In this document: piece after piece, positions 9,074 through 48,556 of the stretch
Layout of the letters: every line of letters begins with the position of its first letter
Numbering within the stretch: the first letter of the stretch is position 1
Notes under the pieces: model-generated
Database searches by the model: none
Told to the model about the DNA's origin: nothing
The model's input: the letters and a program-made list of their open reading frames with translations, nothing else
Position numbers and translations under genes: made by a program
Source: Ranitomeya imitator
Lineage: Eukaryota
Assembly (NCBI RefSeq): GCF_032444005.1
Contig: NC_091284.1
Span: 624,464,001 to 624,528,000 of the forward strand
Length of the DNA: 64,000 nucleotides
Reading direction: 5' to 3'

Positions 9074-9294
9074 CTATAGAACTACAACAGCAATAGTCCT
9101 CATACCAAAGCCACACATACTCCCCAGGGGCTTAAATTCTAGTCTATATAGTCATTTAAAATTCTTTGTATTCCCCTATCATGCCCCCAAACAGAAACGT
9201 AAGCAGCATTACCAAGGAATCATTTTTCCATTATATACCACTAGATGGTGGCCCGATTCTAACGCATCGGGTATTCTAGAATATGCATGTCCAC

Positions 9295-10042
9295 TGTTGT
9301 GAATTCTGTGGCTGAGTTCACTTCTGTGGTCACAAGTGGTATTGCAGTCTCTGGGCTTCCTCCCTCAGGTGTTTTGGTGAGCTCGTTGGCTGCCTTGCTA
9401 TTTAGCTCCACCTGAGTCTGTCTTCCTTGCTCCTTGTCAATGTTCCAGTGTTGGATCTGAGCTACTGCATCTTTCCTTGGGCCTGCTGCTCTGCTAGATA
9501 AGTGCTTCTAGTTTGTTTTCTGTTTTTTCTGTCCAGCTTGTTATTATCTTTTGCTGGAAGCTCTGAGAAGCAAAGGGGTGCACCGCCGTGCTGTTAGTTC
9601 GGCACGGTGGGTCTTTTTGCCCCTTTGCGTGGTTTTCGTTTTAGGGTTTTTTGTAGACTGCATAGTTCTCTTTGCTATCCTCGCTCTGTCTAGAATATCG
9701 GGCCTCACTTTGCTGAATCTATTTCGTTCCTACGTTTGTCTTTTCATCTTGCTAACAGTCATTATATGTGGGGGCTGCCTATTCCTTTGGGGTATTTCTC
9801 TGAGGTAAGTCAGGCTTGTATTTCTATCTTCAGGCTAGTCAGCTCCTCAGGCAGTGCCGAGTTGCATAGGTAGTTGATAGGCGCAATCCACTGCTGCTTC
9901 CAGTTGTGTGAGGATAGATCAGGTACTGCAGTCTACAGAGATTCCACGTCTCAGAGCTCGTCCTATTGTTTTGGGTTATTGCCAGATCTCTGTATGTGCG
10001 CTGATTACTGCACGCTGTGTTGCCTGATTGCCAGCCATAACA
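9295..10042 (+). repeat. 5' LTR of family 1 element (748 bp)
   Basis: TGTTGTGAATTC...CCATAACA, repeated at 14235-14982 with one visible substitution (CCTACGTTT vs CCTACATTT). Confidence 0.97.
9399..9437 (+). promoter_or_regulatory. LTR TATA-like box (TATTTA 9399-9404) and predicted transcript 5' end / self-primer GCTCCTTGT (9429-9437)
   Basis: TATTTA lies 30 nt upstream of GCTCCTTGT, which is the reverse complement of ACAAGGAGC at 10045-10053. The TSS is inferred, not mapped. Confidence 0.65.
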
Positions 10043-10044
10043 GT

Positions 10045-10053
10045 ACAAGGAGC
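10045..10053 (+). promoter_or_regulatory. Putative self-priming primer-binding site (non-tRNA PBS)
   Basis: ACAAGGAGC starts 2 nt after the LTR-terminal CA. There is no TGG (tRNA CCA complement). It has 9/9 complementarity to 9429-9437. Confidence 0.65.
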
Positions 10054-10173
10054 CATTCAATGATTTCCAATAGAGGGAAAAAAGAAATCCTGACATCATT
10101 TTTTTTTCTTAGCTCTGTCTTCAGTCTTTTTTTTCCCCTAGACATTAGAGTGCTTCAGGACACAGCTGTGGAC

Positions 10174-13100
10174 ATGGATATTCAGGCTCTGTGCTCCTCA
10201 ATGGATAATCTCGTTGTAAATGTACAAAAGATTCAAGATACTATTGATCAGAAATCGATGCTAGAACCAAGAATTCCGATTCCTGATTTGTTTTTTGGTG
10301 ACAGAACTAAGTTCCTGAGCTTCAGAAATAATTGTAAGCTATTTTTGGCCTTGAAACCTCATTCTTCTGGTAATCCTATTCAACAGGTTTTGATTATTAT
10401 TTCTTTTTTGCGCGGCGACCCACAGGACTGGGCGTTTTCTCTTGCACCAGGAGATTCTGCATTGAGTAATGTTGATGCATTTTTCCAGGCGCTGGGATTG
10501 CTTTACGATGAGCCTAATTCAGTGGATCAAGCTGAGAAAAATCTGCTGGCTTTATGCCAGGGTCAGGATGATGTAGAAGTATATTGTCAGAAATTTAGAA
10601 AATGGTCAGTACTCACTCTGTGGAATGAATCTGCACTAGCGGCTTTGTTCAGAAAGGGTCTCTCTGAAGCTCTTAAGGATGTAATGGTGGGATTTCCTAT
10701 GCCTGCTGGTTTGAATGAGTCTATGTCCTTGGCCATTCAGATCGGTCGTCGCTTGCGCGAGCGTAAATCTGTGCACCATCTGGCGGTATTGTCTGAGAGT
10801 AAGCCTGAGCCTATGCAGTGCGACAGGACTATGACTAAAGTAGAACGGCACGAACACAGACGTCTGAACAGACTGTGTTTCTATTGTGGTGATTCTACTC
10901 ATGCTATTTCTAATTGTCCTAAACGCACTAGGCGGTTCGATAGCTCTGCCGTTATTGGTACTGTACAGTCCAAATTCCTTTTGTCCATTACCTTAATGTG
11001 CTCTTTGTCATCATATTCTGTCATGGCGTTTGTGGATTCAGGCGCTGCCCTGAATCTGATGGATTTGGATTATGCTAAACGTTGTGGATTTTTCTTGGAG
11101 CCTTTGCGGTGTCCTATTCCGTTGAGAGGAATTGATGCTACACCTCTGGCCAAGAATAAGCCTCAGTACTGGGCCCAGCTGACCATGTGCATGGCTCCTG
11201 CACATCAGGAGGTTATTCGCTTTTTGGTGCTGCATGGTTTGCATGATGTGGTCGTGTTGGGGTTGCCATGGCTACAAACCCATAATCCAGTATTGGATTG
11301 GAACTCTATGTCGGTGACCAGCTGGGGTTGTCAGGGAGTACATGGTGATGTTCCATTTTTGTCTATTTCGTCATCCATTCCTTCTGACATCCCAGAGTTC
11401 TTGTCGGACTTTCAGGATGTATTTGAAGAGTCCAAGTCTGATGCCCTTCCTCCGCATAGGAATTGTGATTGTGCTATCGATTTGATTCCTGGTAGTAAAT
11501 TCCCTAAGGGTCGTTTATTTAATTTGTCCGTACCTGAACACACCGCTATGCGCAGTTATGTGAAGGAGTCCCTGGAGAAGGGACATATTCGCCCATCGTC
11601 GTCACCATTGGGAGCAGGGTTCTTTTTTGTAGCCAAGAAGGATGGTTCGCTAAGACCGTGTATTGATTACCGCCTTCTTAATAAGATCACTGTTAAGTTT
11701 CAGTATCCCTTGCCATTGATTTCTGACTTGTTTGCTCGGATTAAGGGGGCTAGTTGGTTTACTAAGATTGATCTTCGTGGTGCGTATAATCTGGTGAGAA
11801 TCAGGCAGGGAGATGAATGGAAAACGGCATTTAATACGCCCGAGGGTCATTTTGAGTATCTGGTGATGCCGTTCGGACTTGCCAATGCTCCATCTGTTTT
11901 TCAGTCTTTTATGCATGACATTTTCCGTGAGTATCTGGATAAATTCTTGATTGTTTACTTGGATGACATTTTGATCTTCTCAGATGATTGGGAGTCTCAT
12001 GTGAAGCAAGTCAGAATGGTTTTCCAGGTACTGCGTGCTAATTCCTTGTTCGTGAAGGGATCAAAGTGTCTCTTCGGTGTGCAGAAAGTTTCATTTTTGG
12101 GGTTCATCTTTTCCCCTTCTACTATCGAGATGGATCCGGTTAAGGTTCAGGCCATCCAGGATTGGACTCAGCTGACATCTCTAAAAAGTTTGCAGAAATT
12201 CCTGGGCTTTGCTAATTTTTATCGTCGCTTCATCTGTAATTTTTCTAGCATTGCCAGACCATTGACCGATTTGACCAAGAAGGGTGCTGATTTGGTTAAT
12301 TGGTCTTCTGCTGCCGTGGAAGCTTTTCAGGAGTTGAAGCGTCGTTTTTGCTGTGCCCCTGTGTTGTGTCAACCTGATGTTTCTCTTCCGTTCCAGGTCG
12401 AGGTTGATGCTTCTGAGATTGGTGCAGGGGCGGTTTTGTCACAGAGAGGTTCTGGTTGCTCAGTGTTCAAACCATGTGCTTTCTTTTCCAGGAAATTTTC
12501 TGCTGCTGAGCGTAATTATGATGTGGGCAACCGAGAGTTGCTGGCCATGAAGTGGGCATTTGAGGAGTGGCGTCATTGGCTTGAGGGTGCTAAGCATCGC
12601 GTGGTGGTTTTGACTGATCATAAGAACCTTACTTATCTTGAGTCTGCCAAGCGCTTGAATCCTAGACAGGCCCGTTGGTCGTTATTTTTTGCTCGTTTTG
12701 ATTTTGTGATTTCATACCTTCCGGGCTCTAAAAATGTGAAGGCGGATGCTCTGTCTAGGAGTTTTGTGCCCGACTCTCCGGGGTTATCTGAGCCGGCGAG
12801 TATCCTCAAGGAAGGAGTCATTGTGTCTGCCATCTCCCCTGATTTGCGGAGAGTGTTGCAGAAATTTCAGGCTAATAAACCTGATCGTTGTCCGGCCGAG
12901 AAACTGTTCGTCCCTGATAGGTGGACTAGTAAAGTTATCTCTGAACTTCATTGTTCGGTGCTGGCCGGTCATCCAGGAATCTTTGGTACCAGGGAGTTGG
13001 TTGCTAGATCCTTCTGGTGGCCATCTCTGTCACGGGATGTGCGTGCTTTTGTGCAGTCCTGTGGAATTTGTGCTAGGGCTAAGCCCTGCTGTTCACGTGC

Positions 13101-14355
13101 CAGTGGGTTGCTTTTGCCCTTGCCGGTCCCGAAGAGGCCTTGGACACATATTTCGATGGATTTCATTTCTGACCTTCCCGTTTCTCAAAAGATGTCTGTC
13201 ATTTGGGTGGTCTGTGATCGCTTTTCTAAAATGGTCCATCTGGTGCCCTTGGTTAAATTGCCTTCCTCCTCTGATTTGGTGCCTTTGTTCTTCCAGCATG
13301 TGGTTCGTTTACATGGCATTCCTGAGAATATTGTTTCTGACAGAGGTTCCCAGTTTGTCTCGAGGTTCTGGCGAGCCTTTTGTGGTAGGATGGGCATTGA
13401 CCTATCTTTTTCCTCGGCCTTCCATCCTCAGACTAATGGCCAGACCGAACGAACCAATCAGACCTTGGAAACATATCTGAGATGTTTTGTTTCCGCTGAC
13501 CAGGATGATTGGGTGTCATTTTTGCCGTTGGCTGAGTTCGCCCTTAATAATCGGGCCAGCTCGGCTACCTTGGTCTCTCCATTTTTCTGCAATTCTGGGT
13601 TCCATCCTCGTTTCTCTTCAGGACAGGTTGAGTCTTCGGACTGTCCTGGTGTGGATTATGTGGTGGACAGGTTGCAGCAGATCTGGACTCAGGTAGTGGA
13701 CAATTTGACCTTGTCCCAGGAGAAGGCTCAGCTTTTCGCTAATCGCAGACGCCGTGTGGGACCCCGACTTCGTGTTGGGGATCTGGTTTGGTTATCTTCT
13801 CGTCATATACCTATGAAGGTTTCCTCTCCTAAATTTAAACCTCGTTTTATTGGTCCGTATAGGATTTCTGAGATTCTCAATCCGGTGTCTTTTCGTCTGA
13901 CCCTCCCAGACTCCTTTTCCATACATAATGTATTCCATAGGTCGTTGTTGAGGAGATACGTGGCACCTATGGTTCCATCTGTGGAGCCTCCTGCCCCTGT
14001 TTTGGTGGAGGGGGAATTGGAGTATATTGTGGAGAAGATTTTGGATTCTCGTGTCTCTAGACGGAAACTCCAGTATCTGGTCAAATGGAAGGGTTATGCT
14101 CAGGAAGATAATTCCTGGGTTTTTGCCTCTGATGTCCATGCCCCAGATCTTGTTCGTGCCTTTCATGTGGCTCATCCTGGTCGGCCTGGGGGTTCTGGTG
14201 AGGGTTCGGTGACCCCTCCTCAAGGGGGGGGTACTGTTGTGAATTCTGTGGCTGAGTTCACTTCTGTGGTCACAAGTGGTATTGCAGTCTCTGGGCTTCC
14301 TCCCTCAGGTGTTTTGGTGAGCTCGTTGGCTGCCTTGCTATTTAGCTCCACCTGA
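10174..14355 (+). CDS. Gag-Pol polyprotein (Gag, CCHC knuckle, aspartic protease, RT, RNase H, integrase, chromodomain)
   Basis: CFYCGDSTHAISNC zinc knuckle; FVDSGA protease; RPCIDYR...YLDD RT; DAS...TDHKNL RNase H; H..GHPG..C..C and SDRGSQF integrase; EYIVEKILDSR...YLVKWKGY chromodomain. ATG 10174 (MDIQAL) is chosen as the likely start. The reading frame is open from 9874 and ends 121 nt inside the 3' LTR. Confidence 0.95.
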   Translation: MDIQALCSSMDNLVVNVQKIQDTIDQKSMLEPRIPIPDLFFGDRTKFLSFRNNCKLFLALKPHSSGNPIQQVLIIISFLRGDPQDWAFSLAPGDSALSNVDAFFQALGLLYDEPNSVDQAEKNLLALCQGQDDVEVYCQKFRKWSVLTLWNESALAALFRKGLSEALKDVMVGFPMPAGLNESMSLAIQIGRRLRERKSVHHLAVLSESKPEPMQCDRTMTKVERHEHRRLNRLCFYCGDSTHAISNCPKRTRRFDSSAVIGTVQSKFLLSITLMCSLSSYSVMAFVDSGAALNLMDLDYAKRCGFFLEPLRCPIPLRGIDATPLAKNKPQYWAQLTMCMAPAHQEVIRFLVLHGLHDVVVLGLPWLQTHNPVLDWNSMSVTSWGCQGVHGDVPFLSISSSIPSDIPEFLSDFQDVFEESKSDALPPHRNCDCAIDLIPGSKFPKGRLFNLSVPEHTAMRSYVKESLEKGHIRPSSSPLGAGFFFVAKKDGSLRPCIDYRLLNKITVKFQYPLPLISDLFARIKGASWFTKIDLRGAYNLVRIRQGDEWKTAFNTPEGHFEYLVMPFGLANAPSVFQSFMHDIFREYLDKFLIVYLDDILIFSDDWESHVKQVRMVFQVLRANSLFVKGSKCLFGVQKVSFLGFIFSPSTIEMDPVKVQAIQDWTQLTSLKSLQKFLGFANFYRRFICNFSSIARPLTDLTKKGADLVNWSSAAVEAFQELKRRFCCAPVLCQPDVSLPFQVEVDASEIGAGAVLSQRGSGCSVFKPCAFFSRKFSAAERNYDVGNRELLAMKWAFEEWRHWLEGAKHRVVVLTDHKNLTYLESAKRLNPRQARWSLFFARFDFVISYLPGSKNVKADALSRSFVPDSPGLSEPASILKEGVIVSAISPDLRRVLQKFQANKPDRCPAEKLFVPDRWTSKVISELHCSVLAGHPGIFGTRELVARSFWWPSLSRDVRAFVQSCGICARAKPCCSRASGLLLPLPVPKRPWTHISMDFISDLPVSQKMSVIWVVCDRFSKMVHLVPLVKLPSSSDLVPLFFQHVVRLHGIPENIVSDRGSQFVSRFWRAFCGRMGIDLSFSSAFHPQTNGQTERTNQTLETYLRCFVSADQDDWVSFLPLAEFALNNRASSATLVSPFFCNSGFHPRFSSGQVESSDCPGVDYVVDRLQQIWTQVVDNLTLSQEKAQLFANRRRRVGPRLRVGDLVWLSSRHIPMKVSSPKFKPRFIGPYRISEILNPVSFRLTLPDSFSIHNVFHRSLLRRYVAPMVPSVEPPAPVLVEGELEYIVEKILDSRVSRRKLQYLVKWKGYAQEDNSWVFASDVHAPDLVRAFHVAHPGRPGGSGEGSVTPPQGGGTVVNSVAEFTSVVTSGIAVSGLPPSGVLVSSLAALLFSST
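14222..14231 (+). promoter_or_regulatory. Polypurine tract of family 1 element
   Basis: AAGGGGGGGG, then TAC, then the 3' LTR TG at 14235. Confidence 0.85.
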
Positions 14356-14982
14356 GTCTGTCTTCCTTGCTCCTTGTCAATGTTCCAGTGTTGGATCTGA
14401 GCTACTGCATCTTTCCTTGGGCCTGCTGCTCTGCTAGATAAGTGCTTCTAGTTTGTTTTCTGTTTTTTCTGTCCAGCTTGTTATTATCTTTTGCTGGAAG
14501 CTCTGAGAAGCAAAGGGGTGCACCGCCGTGCTGTTAGTTCGGCACGGTGGGTCTTTTTGCCCCTTTGCGTGGTTTTCGTTTTAGGGTTTTTTGTAGACTG
14601 CATAGTTCTCTTTGCTATCCTCGCTCTGTCTAGAATATCGGGCCTCACTTTGCTGAATCTATTTCGTTCCTACATTTGTCTTTTCATCTTGCTAACAGTC
14701 ATTATATGTGGGGGCTGCCTATTCCTTTGGGGTATTTCTCTGAGGTAAGTCAGGCTTGTATTTCTATCTTCAGGCTAGTCAGCTCCTCAGGCAGTGCCGA
14801 GTTGCATAGGTAGTTGATAGGCGCAATCCACTGCTGCTTCCAGTTGTGTGAGGATAGATCAGGTACTGCAGTCTACAGAGATTCCACGTCTCAGAGCTCG
14901 TCCTATTGTTTTGGGTTATTGCCAGATCTCTGTATGTGCGCTGATTACTGCACGCTGTGTTGCCTGATTGCCAGCCATAACA
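14235..14982 (+). repeat. 3' LTR of family 1 element (748 bp)
   Basis: Direct repeat of 9295-10042. Confidence 0.97.
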
Positions 14983-14988
14983 GTCCAC

Positions 14989-15545
14989 GTAGTATATTGC
15001 ACAGGCCATGTAGTATATTGCCCAGTGACGTAGTATATTGGCCAGTCACGTAGCATATTGGCCAGTCACGTAGTATATTGCCCAGCCACGTAGTATATTG
15101 CCCGATCACGTAGTATATTGCCCAGCCACATAGTATATTGCCCAGTGACGTAGTATATTGCCCAGCCACATAGTATATAGCAGAGCCACATAGTACGGTA
15201 TATTGGCCAGTCATGTAGTATATTGCCCAGCCACAAAGTATATAGCAGAGCCACGTAGAATATTGCCCAGTCACGTAGTATATTGCACAGCCCACGTAGT
15301 ATATTGCCCAGCGACATAGTATATTGCCCAGCCACGTAGTATATTGCCCAGTCACGTAGTATATTGCCCAGCCACGTAGTATATTGCACAGCGACGGAGC
15401 ATATTGTCCAGCCACGTAGTATATTGCCCAGTAACATAGTATATTGCCCAGCCACGTAGTATATTGCCCAGGCACGTAGTATATTGCCCAGCCACATAGT
15501 ATATTGCCCAGCGACGGAGTATACAGCACAGAGCCACGTAGTATA
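14989..15545. repeat. Helitron-borne minisatellite, 20-bp unit GTAGTATATTGCCCAGCCAC (~27 units)
   Basis: Tandem units are visible directly, with variants (CCAGTCAC, CCAGTGAC, AGAGCCAC) and no unique spacers. Confidence 0.95.
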
Positions 15546-16757
15546 GAGACTTAAAAAAAATAAACATATACTCACCTTCCGAAGGCCCGTTGAAGTCCTG
15601 CTATACTCACCATCCGCTGCCTTTCCCGCTCCATTGCAAGCGGCAGCTTCCGGTCCCAGGGCTGGTATGAGCAGGACCTGTGATGACGTCGCGGTCACAT
15701 GACCGTGACATCATGGCAGATCCTTGTCGCACACCAGCCCTGGGACCGGAAGCTGCCACTTGCAACGGAGCAGTCACGGGAGCGTCATAAGGAGCAAGAA
15801 TGGCAGCGGATGGTGAGTATAGCAGGTTTTTTTTTTTTTTACTATTTTTAACATGACATATTTTTACTATTGATGCTGCATAGGCAGCATCAATAGTAAA
15901 TAGTTGGGAACACACAGGGTTAATAGCAGCGGTAACGGAGTGCATTACACGGCGGGCCATTACCGCTGCCATTAACCCTGTGTGAGCGGTGAGTGGAGGC
16001 GATTATGGAGTGGGCGCCAGGCAGTGAGTGCAAGGGAGTAAGGGAAGAACTAATGGGACTGTGCCTGTTGCTGATTGGTTGTGGCAGCCATGATAGGCAG
16101 CTGCCAAGACCAATTAGCGACGTGGGATTTCCGTTACGGAAGTTGAGGACAGACAGACAGAAGTACCCCTTAAGTACACCTTAGACAATTATATATATAT
16201 AGATACCATATTATAGCATACATTTTTTTCTTTCAAGCTCATTATGATTGTAGGATAAAAAATAACTTTGCTCAATATGTATCTATATAATTTTAAAAGC
16301 ATACATGGGCTCATAGATTTTAAGTAACCTAACATTCAGTATGAATGAGTCATAACTGATTAAGGGATTGTCCGGCTTTTCCATTTAAATTCTAAATTTC
16401 CACCCATCCCACACCATCCGCTTCCCTCAAAAAAGGTGATGATTATAATCATGTACTAATTCTGTGATGTTGTCTTTTCTGTGGAACATTGAATAGATTC
16501 TTATCAAAATCAGTGGAATTCCCACTGTTTATAATGGAAGTTTGTGTCTGCAGTTTCATCAGATAAAGAGTTCCTATTTTTTACAAAGAGGTGTCTCTTG
16601 CTTATTTTTTATCACGATATTGTCAGAAAAAAAGGGAGTTAATGGTATGTAAAACAAATTTAGAAAGGGGAAAACGATATTCACTGCGAATTGGACTAAT
16701 GAAAATTAGAATCTACTGAAATGGACAAATACATTATATAATATAATATCCAACATA

Positions 16758-18020
16758 CATTCAGTGGGAAAGTATTCCGACCCCTTTGAATTTTTCACTC
16801 TTTGTTTCATTGCAGCCATTTGGTAAATTCAAACAAGTTCTTTTTTCACATTAATGTACACTCTGCACCCTATCTTGACTGAAAACAAAACAGAAATGTA
16901 GAAACTTTTGCAAATTTAATAAAAAACAAAAACTGAAATATCACATGGTCATAAGTATTCATACCCTTTGCTCAGACACTCAGATTTAAGTCACATGCTG
17001 TCCATTTCCTTGTGATCCTCCTTGAAAAGGTTCTACTCCTTCATTGGAGTCCAGCTGTGTTTAATTAAGCTGATAAGACTTGATTTGGAAAGGCACACAC
17101 CTGTCTATATAAGACCTTACTTCTCACAGTGCATGTCAGACCAAATGAGAATCATGAAGTCACAGGAACTGGCCAAGGAGCTCAGAGACAGGATTGTGGC
17201 AAGACTCAGATCTGGCCAAGGTAACAACAGAATTTCTGCAGTACTCAAGGTTCCTAAGAGCACAGTTGTATCCATAATCCTTAAATGGGAGAAGTTTGGA
17301 ACAACCAGAAGTCCACCTAGACCTGGCTGTCCAGTCAAACTGAGCAATTGTGGGAGAAGAGCCTTGGTGAGAGAGGTAAAGAAAAAACCCAAGATCACTG
17401 TGGCTGAGCTCCAGAGAAGCAGTAGGGAGATGGGAGAAAGTTCCACAAAGTCAACTATCACTGCAGCCCTCCATCAGTCAGGACTTTATTGCAGAGTGGC
17501 CTCCCATATTATGAGGAAAAAGATTCTCTGGTCTGATGAGATGAAGATAGACCTTTTGGTGATAATTCTAAGTGGTATGTGGGGAGAAAACCAGGCACTG
17601 CTCATCACCTGCCCAATACAATGCCAACAATGAATCACGGTGGTGGCAGCATCATGCTATGGTGGTGTTTTGCATCTGCAGGGACAGGATGACTGGTTGT
17701 CATTGAAGGAAACATGAATGCCACCAAATACAGAGATATCCTGGAAGAAAACCTCTCCCAGATTGCCCTGGACCTCAGGCTTGGCCGAAAGTTCACGTTC
17801 CAACAAGACAATGACCTTAAGCACACAACTTAAATAACAAAGGAGTGGTTTCAGAACAACTTTGTGACCACTCTTGACTGGCCCAGCCAGAGCCTTGAAC
17901 TAAACTCAATTGAGCACCTCTGTAAAGACCTGAAAATGGCTGTCCACCAACGTTCACGGAACTGGAGAGGATCTGCAAGGAAGAATGGCAGAGGATCCCC
18001 AAATCCAGGCATGAAAAAGG
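16758..18020 (+). mobile_element. Decayed Tc1 (DD34E, IR/DR Sleeping Beauty-like) element, right end missing
   Basis: The left IR resembles the copy at 47250. Transposase remnants include MKSQELAKELRDRIVARLRSGQG, ILWSDE and QQDNDLKHT...WPSQSLELNSIE (34 residues between D and E after frame correction). Frameshifts and an internal deletion are present. Confidence 0.85.
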
Positions 18021-18570
18021 CACTTTTTGAAGGAACTTAAAAGGGAGCTTGTTCCAAACATGTTGGAGAATAAGCCACAAATCTGTGGTTATAGGCTTGT
18101 GCAAATCTATATGTTTCATCATGTAATTCCAGAAAGACTCAATGATGTTGAGATCAGGGCTCTGTAGAGACCATACCATCACTTCCAGGACTCCTTCTTG
18201 TCCTTGTGTTGAAATACTGATATTGGCTGTATCTATGCAATTGACATTGGGTGTATCTGTATATTTGGTCCCATTGTCCTGCTGCAGAATACATTTGGAG
18301 TACATTAGGTGCCTACGGGATGGTACTGCAAGATACCTGTATTTGACTGTATTTCTCAGCATTTGATATCTAATATAGTTTTGAATTCAAAGGGCTGTAA
18401 CACCAAATATTGATTTGATTTAGTTTTCTGTTGTGTGTATTCTCTTAGAAGTTTGTTAATTGATAAAATCACAATATTACAAATAATAACATAAACTGAG
18501 GACTTTTTTATGCATTCTTACTTTGCAGTATTTTTTTTCAGTCTTGTCTAAAACTGTTGCACAAAAGTTC
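18020..18570. mobile_element. Fragments of a second Tc1-like family (DD38E/Intruder-like): catalytic segment on minus strand, 3' end on plus strand
   Basis: The minus strand ~18030-18300 reads ILQQDNG...EGVLEVMVWSLQSPDLNIIESFWNYM. The plus strand ~18378-18568 reads VLNSKGCNTKY-stop, then a TIR-like CTAAAACTGTTGCACA. Family assignment is from motif recall only. Confidence 0.5.
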
Positions 18571-29565: not shown

Positions 29566-30528
29566 TGTTAGGACTGGCGGAACGCACCAAGAGAGATGAT
29601 ATAGATGCGTTCGCAGTCCGGGGTCCACCGTGCAGGTGAAACCTGCTGCTAGGAAATGACAGACTATATGGCGGTATCCAAAAGTATACACGCGTGGGTT
29701 AAACCTCACCCAGCGTGAAGAAAGCGATCCTGTTGCGTCACAGGACCGCGGTACCGCACATAGAGCGCGAGCAAGTGGTCAGCGAACTTAACCCCAACAG
29801 GGATTGTAGTCCGATTAGACCCTTGCTGGCACTACACCGCTACAGGGTGTGTAAGGAAATATATAATTATAGCACCGAAGTGCGAACTGTGCCGTGCTGG
29901 CAGGTACCACTAAGCACCCAGACGTGGGTCAGGAAGCGCACACTGGCGCGTGGCACCGCACTGGCGGTCACAGCAATAGACGCTGATACGTGTGTGACAC
30001 GTTGAGTGATTAGTCGGGCGCTAGATAGCAGCCATACACCATACGCGAACAGTCATACAATAGGGTAGGGGTATTTAATGAACGACTTGCACTCACAACA
30101 AACACACGTATTCAATTGTACACTAGCGCATGGCCGTGCGGTCATGCGCAGTTTATATAGTTGCAGGACAGGAAGTGGCCACAGAAACTTTGCCCTTCCA
30201 AGACCTGCCAAGAGGACCAATAGAATGCGCTGCAGAGTCTGAGCACATGACCCTCGATCTCCAACGGGAGATCTTGCCCTGGGCATGCTCAGTGTGCGCA
30301 GACAAGGACTTAGTCCCAGAGAAGTCCACTCGCTGCTGACCAGCACTGACTTTAATGGCAGTAGCTGAAGAAGCAGCAGTAACTCTCTGAACAGAGTGAG
30401 ACCGAGCAAGACGCTGGGATCGACGTCCCTGCTGAGCAGGCTCCACCGTGGCTGGATAGGAATGGGGGACCGCAGCGGAGACGGCTCGAGATTCCCCCTG
30501 TGCAGAAGCGGGAACTCGAGACCTAACA
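29566..30528 (-). repeat. 3' LTR of family 2 element (963 bp)
   Basis: TGTTAGG...CCTAACA, repeated at 34697-35584 with about 7 visible substitutions plus a 75-bp indel. Confidence 0.95.
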
Positions 30529-33500
30529 TTACCCCCCCTCCTAGGGCCCCCCCCTCCTTGGGCCTCGCTACGCTCGAAGGCAGCAATGAGCTGTGGGGCC
30601 CGAATGTTTTCAGCAGGCTCCCATGACCTGTTCTCTGGACCATAACCCTTCCAATCCACCAGATAGAACTTTTTGCCGTGTACCACCTTACACCCCAAAA
30701 TAGCGTTCACCTCGTAATCGTCCGTAGACGAACCCAATGTCCCGGCAGATGACTCGGAAAACCGGGACATGTATACGGGTTTCAAGAGGGACACATGAAA
30801 GGTGTCGGTGATACCCAAGCATGGAGGAAGAGCCAGGCGGTAGACCACAGGATTAACCTGTTCGAGAACCTTGAAGGGACCCAAGTAGCGAGGAGCAAAC
30901 TTAGTGGACTCAACTCGCAGCCTGATGTTACGGGCGAAGAGCCACACCAAGTCGCCAGGAGCAAAGGTCGGAGCGGGGCGCCGATGAACATCGGCGGAGA
31001 ACCTCATTCTCTCCTTGGAAGCCTGAATGGCATCCTGAGTGCGATCCCAAATGTCCCGTGCCTCCACAGCCCAGTCTGCCACCCTGGAATCGGCGGAAGA
31101 CACGGGCATAGGCGCAGGTACCCGCGGATGCTGACCATAGTTAAGGAGGAATGGAGTCTGTCCAGTGGAGTCAGCTACAGCATTGTTAAGAGCAAACTCC
31201 GCCCACGGTAGCAAAGATGCCCAGTCATCTTGCTTAGCAGAGACAAAATGTCGCAGGTATGTGACCAAGGTCTGGTTGGCTCTCTCCACCAACCCATTCG
31301 TCTCGGGATGATATGCCGAAGAGAGATTCAACTCGATACTGAGAAGGCGACAAAGCTCTCTCCAGAACCGAGATGCAAACTGGGGACCCCGGTCACTGAC
31401 AATTTTGTCTGGCATAGCGTGAAGACGGAAGATGTGTTTAACAAACAATGCTGCCAAGGCCCGTGCAGAAGGTAGCCGAGGAAGCGGCACCAAATGCACC
31501 ATTTTAGAAAAATGGTCGGTGATAACCCATATGACAGTACAGCCACGTGACTTGGGCAAACCCACCACAAAGTCCATCCCGACCATCTCCCAGGGCCTGT
31601 CTGCCACAGGCAGGGGGTATAACAACCCAGCTGGCCGTTGACGGAGAGACTTATTTTTGGCACAAGAGACACATGCCCGAACGTAGTCTCCTACGTCACG
31701 AACCATATGTGGCCACCAATACATTCTCGCCAACAACTCAGATGTCCTCTTTGCCCCAAAGTGTCCACCCACTCTGGACGAATGAACCCACGAGAGAACC
31801 TCCGGACGCAAATTGATGGGAACAAAAGTCTTGCCCGGAGGCACAGACTCAAGCGAAACCGGAGCTACGGTTCTCAGACTCTCTGGAGGGACAATGAGCC
31901 GAGGCTCGTCCTCCTCCTCCACAGTTGACACCAGGGAGCGAGAGAGAGCGTCAGCACGAATGTTCTTCTCCCCAGCGAGATAATGTAGAGTGAAGTGGAA
32001 CCGGGAGAAAAACAAGGACCATCTGGCCTGACGAGAATTCAGCCGCTGGGCTGTCTGTAAATAGACCAAATTCTTGTGGTCCGTGAAGACTTGGAATGGG
32101 AACTGAGCACCCTCCAAGAGATGTCTCCATTCCAAAAAGGCCAACTTCATTGCCAGCAGCTCCCTATCCCCGATGGAGTAATTTCTCTCCGCTGGTGAGA
32201 AGGTCTTTGAGAAGAAGAAGCATGGATGCTTCCGACCTTGAGCATCCTTTTGATAGAGGACTGCTCCTGCACCAACGGATGAGGCATCCACCTCCATTAG
32301 GAATGGCTTATCCACATCAGGATGATGTAAGATGGGAGCGCTAGCAAAGTGGGACTTAATAGAAGTGAAGGCCTTGGAGACCTCTTCGGACCACAATTTA
32401 GGATTCGCTCCCTTCTTGGTGAGGGATACCAAGGGAGCTACCAGGGTTGAGAAGTGGGGGATGAACTGACGATAGTAATTTATGAACCCCATAAAGCGCT
32501 GCACCGCTTTCAGAGAATGGGCTTCCTGCCAGTCCATCACTGCCTGTAGTTTGGCAGGATCCATAGCCAATCCCTGGGCCGAGATGATGTAGCCCAGGAA
32601 AGGTAAAGACTCCTGCTCAAACATACACTTCTCCAACTTGGCATAGAGGGAGTTTGCCCGTAGGAGGTCGAAGACTTTGCAAACATCTCTCCGGTGGGAG
32701 TCAATATCTGGAGAGTAGATGAGAATATCATCCAGATAGACTACGACCGAGGTGGAAAGCATATCCCGGAAGATATCGTTCACAAAGTCTTGGAAAATGG
32801 CTGGGGCATTACAGAGCCCGAAGGGCATCACCAGATATTCATAGTGCCCATCCCTGGTGTTAAAGGCCGTCTTCCATTCGTCCCCCTCACGGATGCGAAT
32901 CAGGTTGTAAGCACCCCGCAGATCTAATTTAGTAAATACCCTTGCTCCCCGAAGTCTATCGAATAACTCAGATATCAAGGGCAAAGGATACTTATTCTTA
33001 ACGGTGATGGCGTTAAGACCCCTGTAGTCTATGCATGGGCGCAATTCCCCATTCTTCTTCTGCACGAAAAAGAACCCTGCCCCAGCAGGTGACACTGACT
33101 TCCTAATGAATCCTCTTGCCAGATTTTCCTGGATGTACTGTGACATTGCCTCCGTCTCCGGGAGAGATAGCGGATAAACTCGACCCCGGGGAGGCTCAGC
33201 ACCAGGCAAGAGATCAATAGGACAGTCATAGGGGCGATGAGGCGGAAGGACCTCCGCCGCCTTTTTGGAGAACACGTCTGCATAAGACCAATACTGCTTG
33301 GGGAGAGAGGATAGATCTGCGGGTACCTCAGTAGTAGCAACCTGAACGCACTCCCTCTGACACCTACCCCCACAAGATTCACCCCAACCCAGAATTCTGC
33401 CTGAGGACCACACGATATGAGGAGAGTGGTACCGTAGCCAAGGTATTCCCAACAGGACCTCATCAATTCCTTCCGGAATGACGAGCAGAGAAATTATCTC

Positions 33501-34538
33501 CTGATGAGATGGCGACATGGACAGAGTAAAAGGGATGGTCTGGTGTGTTATCTGTGAGGGCAATGTCGACCCATTCACCACTCGCACCGTTACTGGTTGA
33601 GCAAGCATTACCAGGGGTATTGCGTGACGTTGGGCGAAGGCAGAAGACATAAAATTGCCCTCCGCCCCAGAATCCACGCAGAGCTCTACCGAGTGGGAGA
33701 ATGAGCCAATAGTAATTGTCCCCTTAAAGGACAACTTAGAGGCAAACGTCGCCGTGTCTAGTGTACCTCCACCTACTACCACTAGACGCTGACGTTTCCT
33801 CGACCGCTGAGGACATCTGGTGGCTAGATGTCCTGACTGCTGGCAAACATGACAGACCCTGAGTGCACAAGCGGTCCGGGACTTAGATCCTGCTTGTGAC
33901 ACTTCCCTGGCCTCATGTGGCTCAGGAACCAGGACCGGAGATTCCAGAGGTTTGGCGAAAGTAGGAGCCAGCCGAAACCTCTGCCTACACTGGGCTCGCT
34001 CTAACCTCCGCTCGTTAAAACGGAGGTCAATTCGAGTGGAGACAGTTATTAACTCCTCCAGTGTGGCAGGAATCTCCCTAGTGGCCAGAGCGTCCTTTAC
34101 GTGGTCAGCCAAGCCCCTCCAAAATATGGGGATAAGAGCTTTATCCGACCAATCCAGCTCAGATGCTAAGGTGCGGAATTGGACGGCAAAATGGCTGACC
34201 AAGGACTCACCCTGAGTTAATGCCAGCAATTGGAGCGCAGTATCATGGGTGACTTGAGGTCCTAAAAAGACCTGTTTCAGGGCGCTCAGAAACAGCGGAG
34301 CACTCTGCACCACATGATCGCCACGCTCCCACAGCGGCGTAGCCCATTCCAACGCCCTGTCCGACAATAGAGACAGAATAAATCCCACCTTAGCCCGCTC
34401 TGTGGGAAAACGTGCAGCCAGGAGCTCGAGGTGAATAGAGCACTGACTCACAAATCCCCTACAAAACTTGCTATCACCAGAAAATTTTTCTTTCAGCGGG
34501 AGGCGAGATAATGTCGGAACAGGGGTGGCAATGGACAT
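30153..34538 (-). CDS. Gag-Pol polyprotein of family 2 (CCHC, protease, RT, RNase H, integrase, chromodomain); probable N-terminal frameshift
   Basis: CHVCQQSGHLATRC; VDSGA; YLDD; TDHKNL; GGHFG..C..C; SDRGPQF; YEVNAILGCK...YLVDWKGY. The frame is open from 34619 with the first in-frame ATG at 34538. The ATG at 34668 is out of frame with it. The ORF runs 376 nt into the 3' LTR. Confidence 0.9.
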   Translation of the reverse strand: MSIATPVPTLSRLPLKEKFSGDSKFCRGFVSQCSIHLELLAARFPTERAKVGFILSLLSDRALEWATPLWERGDHVVQSAPLFLSALKQVFLGPQVTHDTALQLLALTQGESLVSHFAVQFRTLASELDWSDKALIPIFWRGLADHVKDALATREIPATLEELITVSTRIDLRFNERRLERAQCRQRFRLAPTFAKPLESPVLVPEPHEAREVSQAGSKSRTACALRVCHVCQQSGHLATRCPQRSRKRQRLVVVGGGTLDTATFASKLSFKGTITIGSFSHSVELCVDSGAEGNFMSSAFAQRHAIPLVMLAQPVTVRVVNGSTLPSQITHQTIPFTLSMSPSHQEIISLLVIPEGIDEVLLGIPWLRYHSPHIVWSSGRILGWGESCGGRCQRECVQVATTEVPADLSSLPKQYWSYADVFSKKAAEVLPPHRPYDCPIDLLPGAEPPRGRVYPLSLPETEAMSQYIQENLARGFIRKSVSPAGAGFFFVQKKNGELRPCIDYRGLNAITVKNKYPLPLISELFDRLRGARVFTKLDLRGAYNLIRIREGDEWKTAFNTRDGHYEYLVMPFGLCNAPAIFQDFVNDIFRDMLSTSVVVYLDDILIYSPDIDSHRRDVCKVFDLLRANSLYAKLEKCMFEQESLPFLGYIISAQGLAMDPAKLQAVMDWQEAHSLKAVQRFMGFINYYRQFIPHFSTLVAPLVSLTKKGANPKLWSEEVSKAFTSIKSHFASAPILHHPDVDKPFLMEVDASSVGAGAVLYQKDAQGRKHPCFFFSKTFSPAERNYSIGDRELLAMKLAFLEWRHLLEGAQFPFQVFTDHKNLVYLQTAQRLNSRQARWSLFFSRFHFTLHYLAGEKNIRADALSRSLVSTVEEEDEPRLIVPPESLRTVAPVSLESVPPGKTFVPINLRPEVLSWVHSSRVGGHFGAKRTSELLARMYWWPHMVRDVGDYVRACVSCAKNKSLRQRPAGLLYPLPVADRPWEMVGMDFVVGLPKSRGCTVIWVITDHFSKMVHLVPLPRLPSARALAALFVKHIFRLHAMPDKIVSDRGPQFASRFWRELCRLLSIELNLSSAYHPETNGLVERANQTLVTYLRHFVSAKQDDWASLLPWAEFALNNAVADSTGQTPFLLNYGQHPRVPAPMPVSSADSRVADWAVEARDIWDRTQDAIQASKERMRFSADVHRRPAPTFAPGDLVWLFARNIRLRVESTKFAPRYLGPFKVLEQVNPVVYRLALPPCLGITDTFHVSLLKPVYMSRFSESSAGTLGSSTDDYEVNAILGCKVVHGKKFYLVDWKGYGPENRSWEPAENIRAPQLIAAFERSEAQGGGGPRRGGNVRSRVPASAQGESRAVSAAVPHSYPATVEPAQQGRRSQRLARSHSVQRVTAASSATAIKVSAGQQRVDFSGTKSLSAHTEHAQGKISRWRSRVMCSDSAAHSIGPLGRSWKGKVSVATSCPATI
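30531..30553 (-). promoter_or_regulatory. Polypurine tract of family 2 element
   Basis: The minus strand reads GGGGGGCCCTAGGAGGGGGGG-TAA-TGTTAGG. Confidence 0.8.
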
Positions 34539-34684
34539 AGTAGCTGCAGCCACGCTGGCAGCCTGTACAGCTACTGCAGTAACATCCACAGCTGAAGTCG
34601 CGCTCTCGAGAGCCGCCAACCTACCCTCCAGCTGCTGGATATACCGCAGATTGCTGTTTGTCTGTCATCACTAGCCAGACCCTG

Positions 34685-34695
34685 GCGCTAGAGTA
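34685..34695 (-). promoter_or_regulatory. Putative self-priming PBS of family 2
   Basis: Minus strand TACTCTAGCGC, 1 nt after the LTR-terminal CA, with no TGG. It has 10/11 complementarity to GCGCTAGTGTA (35185-35175). Confidence 0.65.
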
Positions 34696-34696
34696 A

Positions 34697-35584
34697 TGTT
34701 ACTGTTAGGAAATGACAGACTATATGGCGGTATCCAAAAGTATACACGCGTGGGTTAAACCTCACCCAGCATGAAGAAAGCGATCCTGTTGCGTCACAGG
34801 ACCGCGGTACCGCACATAGAGCGCGAGCAAGTGGTCAGCGAACTTAACCCCAACAGGGATTGTAGTCCGATTAGACCCTTGCTGGCACTACACCGCTACA
34901 GGGTGTGTAAGGAAATATATAATTATAGCACCGAAGTGCGAACTGTGCCGTGCTGGCAGGTACCACTAAGCACCCAGACGTGGGTCAGGAAGCGCACACT
35001 GGCGCGTGGCACCGCACTGGCGGTCACAGCAATAGACGCTGATACGTGTGTGACACGTTGAGTGATTAGTCGGGCGCTAGATAGCAGCCATACACCATAC
35101 GCGAACAGTCATACAATAGGGTAGGGGTATTTAATGAACGACTTGCACTCACAACAAACACACGTATTCAATTGTACACTAGCGCATGGCCGTGCGGTCA
35201 TGCGCAGTTTATATAGTTGCAGGACAGGAAGTGGCCACAGAAACTTTGCCCTTCCAAGACCTGCCAAGAGGACCAATAGAATGCGCTGCAGAGTCTGAGC
35301 ACATGACCCTCGATCTCCAACGGGAGATCTTGCCCTGGGCATGCTCAGTGTGCGCAGACAAGGACTTAGTCCCAGAGAAGTCCACTCGCTGCTGACCAGC
35401 ACTGACTTTAATGGCAGGAGCTGAAGAAGCAGCAGTAACTCTCTGAACAGAGTGAGACCGAGCAAGACGCTGGGATCGACGTCCCTGCTGAGCAGGCTGC
35501 ACTGCGGCTGGATAGGAATGGGGGATCGCAGCGGAGACGGCTCGAGATTCCCCCTGTGCAGAAGCGGGAACTCGAGACCTAACA
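34697..35584 (-). repeat. 5' LTR of family 2 element (888 bp; 75-bp deletion in U5)
   Basis: Matches 29566-30528 except that the equivalent of 29571-29645 is absent. Confidence 0.93.
35175..35215 (-). promoter_or_regulatory. LTR TATA box (TATATAAA 35215-35208) and predicted transcript 5' end / self-primer GCGCTAGTGTA (35185-35175)
   Basis: The TATA-to-primer spacing is 30 nt, the same as in family 1 and in the LTR at 55997 (TATAAAA 56393, GCACTAGTATA 56423). Confidence 0.7.
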
Positions 35585-38879: not shown

Positions 38880-40800
38880 TTTCTCAGTAAAATTATACCA
38901 TACATTTTTTGTGCAATTTCTCCTGAGTACGCCAATACCCCATATACTGTCTGGGAGAATGGCAGGGCTCAGAAGGGAAGGAGCACTGTTATGAATAGGT
39001 AATTCAGAACCACAATGGACCTTGAAGTTCAGAGCACACAAAGTGACCTGACAATAAGCAAAAAACATAGGACGAGCTCTGAGACGTGGGAACTCTGCTG
39101 ACCGCAATCCCTAATCCTATCACACCACACTAGAGGTAGCCGTGGATTGCGCCTAACGTTCCCTATGCAACTCGGCACAGCCTGAGAAACTAGCTAGGCC
39201 TGAAGATAGAAAAATAAGCCTACCTTGCCTCAGAGAAATTCCCCAAAGGAAAAGGCAGCCCCCCACATATAATGACTGTGAGTTAAGATGAAAATACAAA
39301 CACAGAGATGAAATAGATTTAGCAAAGCGAGGCCCGACTTACTGAATAGACCGAGGATAGGAAAGATAGCTTTGCGGTCAACACAAAAACCTACAAACAA
39401 CCACGCAGAGGGGCAAAAAGACCCTCCGCACCGACTAACGGTACGGAGGTGCTCCCTCTGCGCCTCAGAGCTTCCAGCAAGCAAGAAAAACAAAGAAAAG
39501 CAAGCTGGACAGAAAATATAGCAACAAAAGTAACACAAGCAGAACTTAGCTTATGCTGAGCAGACAGGCCACAGGAACGATGCAGGAGGAAGCAAAACCA
39601 ATACTAGAACATAGACTGGAGGCCAGGATCAAAGCACTAGGCGGAGTTAAATAGAGCAGCACCGAACGACTTAACCTTATCACCTGAGGAAGGAAACTCA
39701 GAAGCCGCAGTACCACTTGTGACCACAAGAGGGAGCTTGATCACAGAATTCACAACAGAGCACCATTTGACTTTTGGAATTCAAAAATTGTCTGGAATCG
39801 ATAGCCGACACCATGTTGCTTTGGAGAGCCCCTGAAGTGTTTAAACAAAGGAAAAACCCCACACGTGACACCATTTTGGAAACTAGACCATTCAAGGTAT
39901 TTATCTAGATGTGTTATGAGCACCTCGAACCCACAGGAGTTTCACAGAATTTTATAAAGTTGAGCCGAGAAAATTGAAAGACAATTTTTTCCCACAAAAA
40001 TGCTATTTTAGTCTTAATTTTTTTGTTTCCACGAGGGTAAAAAGAAAATTAACACCACTGTCAATTGTGAAATTTTTCCTGAGCATGCCAAGACCAATAT
40101 ATGGTCAGAATCTACCCTTCAGCTACAGTGCAAAGCTCAGAAGGAAATGAGCACCATATTGGAGAGCAGATTTTGCTGGAATAGTTTGTGGGTGACTAGT
40201 CACATTGTCAGACTCCTAGAGATGCCAGAACAGCAGACCCCCCCCCCCATAAGTGACCTAATTTTACAATTTCCTCCCCTGAACGAATTATTCTAGTGGT
40301 ACAGCAAACATACCAACACCACAGCTGTTCCATACAATTTTATACCGTTTAATGGAGAAGAATAAATAATTATATTTTTACCACTAAAATGTCGTTTTAA
40401 CACCAGATTTTACATTTTTACATAGGAAAATAGGTAGATAGGTAAATGGTTTCTACACACATAGATGAATTCCCAGAGCAGTGTCATTTCCCAAATGGGG
40501 TCACTTCACTGGGATTCTGCTGTTCTGGCATTTTTCAGAGATGCTAAGTGCCAGAATAGCAGAATCCTCCCTGAATTGATCAAATTTTGTACATGACAAC
40601 CCCCTTAGAATTCATCTATGGGTGTAGTTACCATTTTCACTCCATGGATGATATACAGAAACAATCACACAGTGGAAGTTTTAGAGCAAAAATTGCAAAT
40701 ATGCCATTATAATGCTCAATATATTGTGCCCAATTTGGGTCTCCAGAAAAATCCTATTCCCTCAGGAAATTGTTAAGCGAGCTCTACTCCAATGTGCCAT
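38880..40800. repeat. Internal segments of a large piggyBac-type non-autonomous repeat (host of the solo LTR)
   Basis: Repeated GGGCTCAGAAGGGAAGGAGCACCAT / AGCTCAGAAGGAAATGAGCACCAT modules. Termini are not identified. Confidence 0.45.
38987..39757 (-). mobile_element. Solo LTR, diverged family 1 subfamily (771 bp)
   Basis: The minus strand begins TGTTGTGAATTCTGTG (as at 9295) and ends CATAACA. It shares GCTAACAGTCATTATATGTGGGGG-like and AGTTGCATAGG blocks with the family 1 LTR. GAGCAC is duplicated at 38981-38986 and 39758-39763. Confidence 0.92.
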
Positions 40801-42080: not shown

Positions 42081-42769
42081 TCTCATTTAGCACTCTTTGC
42101 CCCTCTTGTACTGGTCCTTGTGTTTGAGGATGGACCGGAATCATTACTCATTTCTGCAAAGTTCTATAATAAACAAACTACTGTATATACTCGAGTATAA
42201 GCCGAGATTTTCAGCCCATTTTTTTAGGCTGAAGGTGCCCCTCTCAGCTTATACTCGAGTCAATCCCAGGGGGTCGGCGGGGGAGCAGCGGCTGTCACAT
42301 CATACTCTCCCTCCCAGTGCGGTCCCTGGCAGCCTCACCGATGTGATGGTCTCTGGGCACCGGCAGCTCTCCTGTGTTCAGCGGTCACATGATACCGCTC
42401 ATTAAAGTAATGAATATAGAAGTGACTCCACTCCCATAGGGAGTGACCGCTGAACTCAGGAACAAGCTGCCGGAGCCAGAGACCATCGCATTGGAGAAGC
42501 TGCCAGGGACTGCGCTGGGAGGGTGAGTATGACAAAGAAAGGTGAGCATTGCGATATTTACCTGTCCCCATTCCACCGCTGGGCTCCATCTTCCGCATCC
42601 ACTGGCTGTGATGTTCTGGTCAGAGGGCTTGATGACGTGGCTAGTGCACGCCCTCTGCCTAAACAGTCGCTGCAGAGACCCAGAACACACAGCGGTGCGT
42701 AGCGGTGGAACGGGGACAGGTGAATATCGCAAGTGCCAGTGTCCCTGCCTGCACAGGACAAGTCGCAGC

Positions 42770-43165
42770 ATATGGGGCATAATACTCTATGGAACATCTT
42801 ATGGGGCCATAATCAACCTTTGTGCAGAATGTTATGGGGCACAATTTCTATGGAGCATTTTATGGGGACATAATTAACCTTTATGCAGCATTGTATGGGG
42901 CAAATGTTTCTATGGAGCATCTACTGGGGCCATAATCAACCTTTATGCAGCATTATGTGGGACACATTTCTATGGAGCATATTATGGGGCTATAATCAAC
43001 CTTTATGCAGCATTGCATTGGCAAAATGTTTATATTTAGCATTTTATGGGGCCACAATCAACCTTTGTGCAGCATTATATGGGGCATATTTTTGTATGGA
43101 GCATCTTATGGGGCCCATCATAAACTTTATGGAGCATTATATGGGGTATATTTTGTATGGAGCAT
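42770..43165. repeat. Minisatellite (~30/60-bp ATGGAGCAT.TTATGGGG / AATCAACCTTTATGCAGCAT units) inside the Tc2-like element
   Basis: Tandem units are visible directly. Confidence 0.85.
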
Positions 43166-43305
43166 TAAAAAGAGCTACTGATTCAATATGGATTTTCAAA
43201 AACACTTATCCTACTGATGTCTCAATTAATTTTACTTTTATTGGTTTCTATTTTTATTTTTGAAATTTACCAGTAGCTGCTACATTTCCCACCCTAGGCT
43301 TATAC

Positions 43306-47249: not shown

Positions 47250-48556
47250 CAGTGGGCACGGAAAGTATTCATACCTCTTTAAATTTTTCACTCTTTGTTT
47301 CATTGCAGCCATTTGGTATATTCCAAAAAGTTCATTTTTTTTCTCATTAATGTACACTCTGCACCCCATCTTGACAGAAAAAAACAGAAATGTAGTAATT
47401 TTTGCAAATTTATTAAAGAAAAACTGAAATATCACATGGTCATAAGTATTCAGACACTCAAATACTCAATTGGGTTTAGGTCAGGGCTCTGGCTGGGCCA
47501 GTCAAGAGTGGTCACAGAGTTGTTCTGAAGCCACTCCTTTGTTATTTTAGCTGTGTGCTTAGTGTCATTTACTTGTTGGAAGGTGACCCTTCAGCCAAGT
47601 ATGAGGTCCAGAGCACTCTGGAAGACGTTTTCATCAAGGATATCTCTGTACTTGGCCACATTCATGTTTCCTTAAATTATAACCATGTTTCACTACTAGG
47701 GTTGTAATGGGCAGGTGATGAGCAGTGCCTGGTTTTCTCCACACATACCGCTTAGAATTTTCACTAAAAAGGTCTATCTTTGTCTCATCTGACCAGTGAA
47801 CTTTATTTATCATAGTCTGGGTGGGCTTTTATATGTATTGCCACTGGGGAGAGGCTTCCGTCTGGCCACTTTGCCATAAAGTGATATGTGACTTTGTGAT
47901 ATGTGATATGTGATATGTGACTTTGTGCAACTTTCTCTCTTCTCCCTAAAGCATCTCTGGAGCTCAGCACCAGTGATCTTGAGGTTCTTCTTTACCTCTT
48001 TCTCCAAGGCTCTTCTCCCACGATTGCTCAGTTTGGCTGGTCAACCAGGTCTAGGAAGACTTTTGGTGGTCCCAAACTTCTTCCATTTAAGGAATATGGA
48101 GGCCACTGTGCACTTAGGAACTGTGAATACTGCAGAAATTCTTTTGTAACCTTGGTCAGATCTGTGCCTTGCCACAATACTGTCTCTGAGCTCCTTGGCA
48201 ATTTCCTTTGACCTCATGATTTTCATTTGGTCTGACATGCACTGTGAGCTGTAAGGTCTTATATAGACAGGTGTGTGCCTTTCCAAATCAAGTCCTATCA
48301 GTTTAATTTAACACAGCATGTGACTTAAATATGAGTGTCTGAGCAAAGAGTCTGAATACTTATGACCATGTGATATTTCATTTTTTCTTTTTTATTAAAT
48401 TTGCAAAAATTTCTACATGTCTGTTGTTTTCAGTCAGCATGGGGTGCAGAGTTTACATTAAAGTGAAAAAAATGAACTTTTTTGAATTTACCAAATGGCT
48501 GCAATGAAACAAAGAGTGAAAATTTAAAAGGGTCTGAATACTTTCCGTACCCACTG
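47250..48556 (-). mobile_element. Tc1 (IR/DR Sleeping Beauty-like) internally deleted element, 1307 bp, both ends present
   Basis: TA TSD (47248-47249, 48557-48558). Long IRs begin CAGTGGG.ACGGAAAGTATTCA. The minus-strand remnant reads MRSKEIAKELRDSIVARHRSDQGYKRISAVF. Same family as 16758. Confidence 0.9.

Follow-up and report, generated by a model that had tools for sequence, protein, structure and literature searches.

This study provided evidence that a young family of Ty3/Gypsy chromoviruses in the frog Ranitomeya imitator, here called family A, very probably primes its minus-strand DNA with the predicted first 9 nt of its own RNA, in the manner of Tf1. Judging from the genomic copies, the primer-binding site (PBS) of these elements is complementary to a site in their own LTR, and it is the pairing rather than the sequence that appears to be conserved. 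The self-priming reading had been put forward in a preliminary description of the 64,000-nt stretch of DNA analysed here (the window), and it is supported by covariation, in 9 of 9 elements of subfamily B and in 80 of 91 elements of a wider sample.

Structure, age and copy number of the element

The positions of the features in the window are given in Table 1.

Table 1. Features of the window (position 1 is its first nucleotide)
Feature	Position	Strand	Remarks
Left target-site duplication (TSD) GTCCAC, 6 bp	9289-9294		right copy 14983-14988
Family A element, Ty3/Gypsy chromovirus	9295-14982	+	single ORF, LTR pair, 6-bp TSD
5' LTR, family A, 748 nt, TG...CA	9295-10042	+	ends ...CATAACA
TATA-like box TATTTAG	9399-9405	+	
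Predicted self-primer GCTCCTTGT	9429-9437	+	putative first 9 nt of RNA
Predicted U5 hairpin	10014-10044	+	pairs LTR end and GT spacer, abuts PBS
2-nt spacer GT	10043-10044	+	mirrors AC before 3' LTR
Primer-binding site ACAAGGAGC	10045-10053	+	same in 30/30 near-identical copies
C after PBS	10054	+	non-complementary to LTR base preceding primer
gag-pol ORF, single	10174-14355	+	frame open from 9874; another in-frame ATG at 10060
Polypurine tract AAGGGGGGGG plus TAC	14222-14234	+	ahead of 3' LTR
3' LTR, family A	14235-14982	+	
Family C chromovirus	29566-35584	-	5-bp TSD; LTR unrelated to that of family A
Family C TATATAA	35215-35209	-	
Family C primer site GCGCTAGTGT	35185-35176	-	
Family C PBS	34694-34685	-	one mismatch in window copy
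Solo LTR, subfamily B, 771 nt	38987-39757	-	6-bp TSD GTGCTC; primer site GCCTCCAGT 39623-39615

The family A element shows the gag-PR-RT-RH-IN order and the C-terminal chromodomain of the chromoviruses. Its 1,493-aa stop-to-stop frame contains a CCHC gag, protease, RT, RNase H, integrase and chromodomain, the RNase H domain being present and uninterrupted, and a profile search of the protein returned RVT_1, RT_RNaseH, Integrase_H2C2, rve, SH3_Tf2-1 and Chromo above the cut-off. The solved RT nearest to that of family A is the Ty3 enzyme. The closest proteins come from Ranitomeya imitator (up to 99% identical), which agrees with the frog origin assumed in the preliminary description, and the best protein matches are from frog, fish, salamander and a smut fungus, with the fish and other-frog relatives at ~40-45% identity.

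Family A is young. The LTR pair of the window element has 1 difference over 748 sites, and the best 40 genomic matches to the element are each ~100% identical; the earlier view of the element as young and ORF-intact is thus borne out, the 1,493-aa frame being uninterrupted. Searching the genome with a pattern of LTR end plus leader, in which the PBS was left free, gave 51,619 matches compared with 19 for the control, and the copy number of family A and its kin is put at about 50,000. The TSDs are 6 bp long in family A and subfamily B, often with G first and C last, and 5 bp long in family C of the same genome. The GT spacer between LTR and PBS is likely taken off by integrase.

Several other repeats lie in the window. 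A degraded relative of family C (51600-56900, plus strand) is broken by a Tc1/mariner-like transposase frame (53166-54254, minus strand), and related Tc1-like DNA transposon remnants are found in opposite orientation at 16767-18386 and 47260-48430. Tandem repeats occupy 14985-15600 (unit of ~20 nt), 42765-43166 (~61 nt) and 57006-57703 (20/13 nt), and the first of these arrays forms the right flank of the family A element.

Covariation of the primer site and the PBS

In the window copy the PBS is the exact complement of the LTR site 30 nt from TATTTA (9399). The complementarity extends over exactly 9 nt, with mismatches at either side, and GCTCCTTGT occurs within the window only at this site and, in the 3' LTR, at 14369. 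The GT spacer, the PBS, its complement and TATTTA all lie where the preliminary description had placed them, and TGG, sought in the 30 nt downstream of the family A 5' LTR, was absent, as it had also reported. A single-copy match of this kind is suggestive only, because among 20,000 dinucleotide shuffles of the LTR, with PBS offsets of 0-5 allowed, a 9-mer complement was present anywhere in the LTR in 1,148 cases, and at 20 to 40 nt from the TATA box in 41.

The solo LTR at 38987 had been noted to carry a variant primer site, which was confirmed as GCCTCCAGT on the minus strand, and a PBS reading ACTGGAGGC had been predicted for its full-length relatives. Fetching 30 loci with this LTR yielded 9 ordinary 5' LTRs of subfamily B, and all 9 read GT-ACTGGAGGCC, in support of the prediction. 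For the wider sample, the first 100 of the 51,619 junctions were taken, all on contig C1 and not picked by PBS sequence, and the LTR site was located by a flanking anchor and the TATA box, independently of the PBS. The site could be anchored in 91 of the 100, and 4 of the 9 unanchored elements have the complement together with a variant TATA box. A perfect complement between PBS and primer site was found in 80 of the 91 anchored elements, representing nine sequence types, and the remaining 11 pairs were imperfect; covariation across copies, as anticipated in the preliminary description, thus holds in this sample. The primer site lies at TATA+30 in 88 of the 91. When PBSs were permuted among the elements 10,000 times, exact pairs numbered 19.9 on average and 34 at most.

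Two explanations were rejected. A chance origin of the pairing is contradicted by the observed 80 of 91 against the permutation maximum, and by the rarity of such matches near the TATA box in the shuffles; LTR ends offset by 2 nt are contradicted by the TSDs, which fix TG...CA as the ends.

Because related elements have types in common, changes were also placed on a tree of 89 elements built from the LTR downstream of the primer site, with L211 and L329 omitted for indels beside the anchor. For primer columns 3-8, the LTR site required 14 changes, the PBS 16, and both jointly 16; therefore each LTR change coincides with a PBS change. Unmatched changes fall in columns 1, 2, 5, 7 and 9.

Comparison with the 3' LTR was sought for 16 elements, of which L221, L239, L289 and L296 had this LTR outside the fetched stretch and 2 stretches held a different LTR. 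Both LTRs carry the variant in 4 of the 5 rare matched variants checked (L218, L293, L300 and L323). In the fifth, L340 (with L440, G000:C1:11063581-11069731), the 5' LTR and the PBS share a complementary variant that is missing from the 3' LTR, a pattern for which the self-priming model does not account. In L211 and L337, which appeared mismatched, the 3' LTR is intact. In L239 and L289 the PBS mismatches the element's own LTR site, one of them being of a sister subfamily's type. Separately, L234, L314 and L326 (3 of 91, at two places in the tree) have A instead of C in the PBS opposite primer base 1, possibly through an RT error at the template end.

A contiguous sample of 1.06 Mb contained further types; two of these replace a Watson-Crick pair with G-U, while a third type lacks a good match; altogether the genome contains more than ten PBS types. 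The same geometry was found in family C, the LTR of which does not align with that of family A and the RT of which is ~64% identical. In family C a 10-nt exact pair with the primer site at TATATAA+30 is present in 12 of 13 5' junctions, the exception being the window copy, which also has a 75-nt deletion in its 5' LTR. The pairing format is 9 nt with a 2-nt spacer in family A and 10 nt in family C.

Predicted folding of the leader RNA

Folding of the 662-nt leader predicted the primer-PBS helix with a pairing probability of 0.98, and in 14 of 16 relatives the probability was above 0.8. The U5 hairpin is predicted to be strong in family A and only partly conserved in the relatives, where it exceeds 0.7 in 27 of 91 (mean 0.57 vs 0.32 for shuffled sequences). 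Three approaches gave no support for the third (post-PBS) duplex of the Tf1 pretzel, with -11.7 kcal/mol for the own pairing compared with -11.8 kcal/mol for swapped sequences and a mean z of -0.14.

Fold-back insertions

In a subfamily B locus (L059), the first case observed, the PBS runs on directly into an inverted copy of U3. Such fold-back junctions number at least 132, against 0 in the controls: subfamily B accounts for 71, three other subfamilies together for 41, family A for 19 and family C for 1. These figures include at least two loci twice. In the 40 loci examined, the inversion reaches the first base of the LTR. What follows the inverted U3 is an exact 6-bp TSD at once in 9 (solo-type units), GTA (complementary to the TAC that precedes U3) in 25, and other sequence in 6; beyond GTA, the sequence is usually internal or reversed U5. 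Ten longer units were fetched, and all 7 that could be scored have exact 6-bp TSDs. In one of these, L350, a PBS copy and an inverted U3 come after the 3' LTR of a complete element, with matching TSDs.

The units take several further forms. In L351, L354, L360, L363, L365, L369, L426, L063 and L066 the inverted U3 is followed by a reversed U5 end, the join being GT or GTA, and in L351 and L369 an end falls exactly at CA-GT. Double fold-backs, seen in L405/L406 and L428/L429, are short units with a PBS-inverted-U3 arm at either end, and L065, L066, L069 and L070 are fold-back units within or adjoining other copies of the same family. L047 and L115 are tandem elements with one common LTR (PPT-LTR-PBS), and they resemble tandems that Tf1 is described as forming independently of integrase (PMC11042837).

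An origin of the fold-backs as assembly or post-insertion artefacts was rejected, as they occur on ten contigs with distinct TSDs. The fold-back units were formed before insertion, because the TSDs are clean at the CA ends. Most simply, these units would have arisen when plus-strand strong-stop DNA ending with a primer copy annealed to its own U3/R border prior to insertion. In about half of Tf1 cDNA, the 3' end is described as retaining the PBS copy in single-stranded form (PMC11042837), and the family A fold-backs resemble Tf1 in this respect. This weakness for folding back is confined to elements whose primer matches their own LTR.

The extra C and its probable origin from the RNA cap

Of 91 ordinary elements, 90 have C directly behind the PBS, and the LTR base preceding the primer site (position -1) is T in 66. 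In the family A fold-backs, one extra C follows the primer copy in 19 of 19, the element's own LTR has T at -1 in 18, and no purely LTR-templated junction was found among them; C and CA both fit as the extra base or bases. The 41 junctions of the other subfamilies comprise CT (20), CA (13) and no C (8). Ten of the 11 CA junctions fetched come from types with G at -1 and are hence uninformative, and among the informative junctions of these subfamilies the extra C is missing from 8 of 28. It is also missing from the sole family C fold-back. The LTR arm of the 12 CT matches fetched has T in 3 and G in 7 (6 loci, one of them a mirror image) and could not be scored in 2, and at about 5-6 loci the C is matched by G in the own LTR. 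None of 30 ordinary LTRs of these types, a sample to which some elements contribute both of theirs, had that G at -1, and the G-arm loci are older, with an arm divergence of 1.6% vs 0.5%. From these data we infer that the G arms, and some of the C-less junctions, would be products of later repair.

Copying of the cap is fairly likely to be the best explanation for the extra C, because RTs of the MMLV type are able to write a C opposite the cap (PMC6885630), and it would place the RNA start at G9429. The spacing from the TATA box and the fold-back junctions point to the same RNA 5' end. We also lean, somewhat less firmly, towards the wider reading that the cap templates a base in every cycle, such that a capped 9-nt self-primer would write the PBS together with the invariant C, and the fold-backs would be the cost. 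If this is true, the fold-back junctions would give single-nucleotide positions for the RNA start and the cDNA ends, and the exact length of the primer, with genome sequence as the only data needed.

A tentative alternative, clearly the less probable one, is that the C is non-templated, or read from the element's own PBS+1 after strand transfer, and that the inversions are switches at the 9-nt inverted microhomology. Tf1 RT is described as putting non-templated bases on most cDNA ends (PMC11042837), CA also follows the ordinary PBS in family A, and junctions without the C do exist in other subfamilies and in family C. Free switching within a perfect 9-nt match should, however, mostly leave no C, whereas family A has 0 such junctions against 19. 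Moreover, junctions read CT where the ordinary PBS precedes CC or CA (20 of 41), which indicates that only one base was added, and the clean TSDs at the CA ends show that the units pre-date insertion. This alternative bears on the cap step and not on self-priming.

Primers from other sources

An element-derived primer might instead be supplied in trans, in the form of capped short transcripts or cleaved 5' ends that stem from other copies, from solo LTRs or from a co-packaged RNA, and not be released from the molecule that it primes. The covariation and the extra C would fit such a primer equally well, and the mismatch of L239 and L289 with their own LTR site, with a sister type in one of them, would also be consistent with it. 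These discordant elements are likewise compatible with ordinary recombination. Folding gives the intramolecular helix a probability of 0.98, and in the description of Tf1 the element cuts the RNA that is its own (PMC7175516); we consider supply in trans unlikely.

Concerning host tRNAs, the PBS of subfamily B, TGGAGGCC(C), which begins 4 nt past the LTR, matches the 3' end of tRNA-Thr(TGT) plus CCA over 8-9 nt. The preliminary description had reported the lack of a TGG-type PBS in the window element, and family A indeed has no TGG; it had overlooked that the PBS it predicted for subfamily B has both TGG and the Thr match. A PBS of the tRNA-primed kind would start with TGG and match a tRNA over at least 12 nt, and neither family A nor subfamily B shows this. 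Genome-wide, 0 LTR junctions extend the Thr match into the next bases of the tRNA. TGG is absent from 7 of the 9 exact PBS types, and all nine follow the LTR site. The 71 fold-backs of subfamily B pass from the PBS directly into the inverted U3 (a passage that the search pattern demands), and a priming position 2 nt from the LTR, as opposed to 4 nt, agrees with the junctions that end at CA-GT. Priming by tRNA-Thr(TGT) in subfamily B and by tRNA fragments in the others is therefore very improbable.

The tRNA family search scored 63 of ~204,780 candidates, and every one of 30 fetched loci proved to be Lys(TTT); the T-loop pattern search was at background (63 vs 105 in the control), and true Thr(TGT) genes were present in 3 of 9 loci tested. 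Fragments of tRNA are excluded only indirectly, by a PBS that appears to track the LTR site through many types. When L371, L387 and L388 are set beside subfamily B, the Thr(TGT)-like primer site may be either chance or a trace of earlier tRNA priming. A tRNA-Lys(TTT) tandem array with a period of ~1,008 bp was also observed (G000:C4:660779745-661262960).

Proposed mechanism

Self-priming in family A would proceed in five steps. First, Pol II would start at G9429. Second, nucleotides 1-9 would pair with the PBS ~615 nt downstream, a step that is predicted by folding and supported by covariation. Third, by analogy with Tf1, the RNase H of the RT would cleave after nt 9, and the RT would extend the primer via the GT spacer into U5. 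Fourth, as the fold-backs suggest, the plus-strand strong-stop would copy the attached primer and add a C, likely opposite the m7G cap. Matched changes in primer and PBS would be expected, because each cycle would rewrite the PBS from the primer. Being complementary to the U3/R border on its own strand, the PBS copy could fold back, and in the fifth step, the product of which is present in the genome and the origin of which is proposed here, the folded-back copy would extend through U3 to ...CA-GTA. Such molecules would then have two fates, namely insertion with a U3 end at each side, or a jump into the internal region.

Comparison with known elements and significance

Tf1 is known to prime with the first 11 bases of its own RNA after RNase H cleavage (PMC7175516). 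Family A shares with Tf1 and Tf2 of S. pombe, and with Tj1, Tosmo1-3 and Tcry1, the Ty3/Gypsy chromovirus type and a PBS that complements the LTR site at the presumed RNA start, and it has a single ORF as do Tf1 and Tf2 (PMC7175516, PMC10085805, PMC4600332). It differs in several points: the pairing comprises 9 nt in family A and 11 nt in Tf1; 2 nt separate LTR and PBS, whereas the Tf1 PBS is described as flanking the LTR directly (PMC11042837); a CCHC gag is present, which is missing from the fission-yeast elements; the TSD is 6 bp, compared with 5 bp in Tosmo; and the host is a vertebrate with ~50,000 copies. With its 9-nt primer, 2-nt spacer and 6-bp TSD, family A is not Tf1 in the narrow sense of an 11-nt primer and a PBS abutting the LTR.

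The literature describes self-priming, together with a three-duplex leader, as a shared trait of the Tf1/sushi group that extends to its vertebrate members (PMC10085805, PMC4600332, PMC6317226), and the same three papers cite Butler et al. 2001 for the vertebrate proposal. Like sushi-ichi of Takifugu and other vertebrate Tf1/sushi elements, for which self-priming and a pretzel leader have been proposed from sequence, family A is a vertebrate chromovirus, and its features make it a likely member of this group. The non-yeast members mostly use a -1 frameshift according to PMC10085805, whereas family A has one open frame. To the vertebrate proposal, family A adds population-scale covariation and fold-back insertions. 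With tRNA-primed Ty3/Gypsy elements and plant chromoviruses it has in common the domain order, the PPT, the TG...CA ends and short spacers; unlike the tRNA-primed Ty3/Gypsy elements, most subfamilies here have a PBS without TGG, and the PBS tracks the LTR site.

Studies of Tf1 cDNA ends discuss added nucleotides, so that some of the present findings may already have been published. In a literature search that did not include the primary Tf1 papers or Butler et al. 2001, no report was found of population-scale primer/PBS covariation in vertebrates, of insertions of the LTR-PBS-inverted-U3 type, or of self-primed elements with a base derived from the cap. In the literature consulted, self-priming is demonstrated in fission yeast, and for vertebrates it is proposed from sequence only.

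The genome of R. imitator provides a natural compensatory-change experiment, with ~50,000 copies and a range of PBS types that exceeds ten, and more than a hundred by-products, preserved as insertions, show where reverse-transcription intermediates ended. Single-base predictions follow, namely an RNA start at 9429, a 9-nt capped primer and a plus-strand end at the PBS plus C. The LTR-PBS-inverted-U3 units offer an assay for self-priming that can be applied to any genome from its sequence. Finally, the family is large enough to affect genome size in these frogs.
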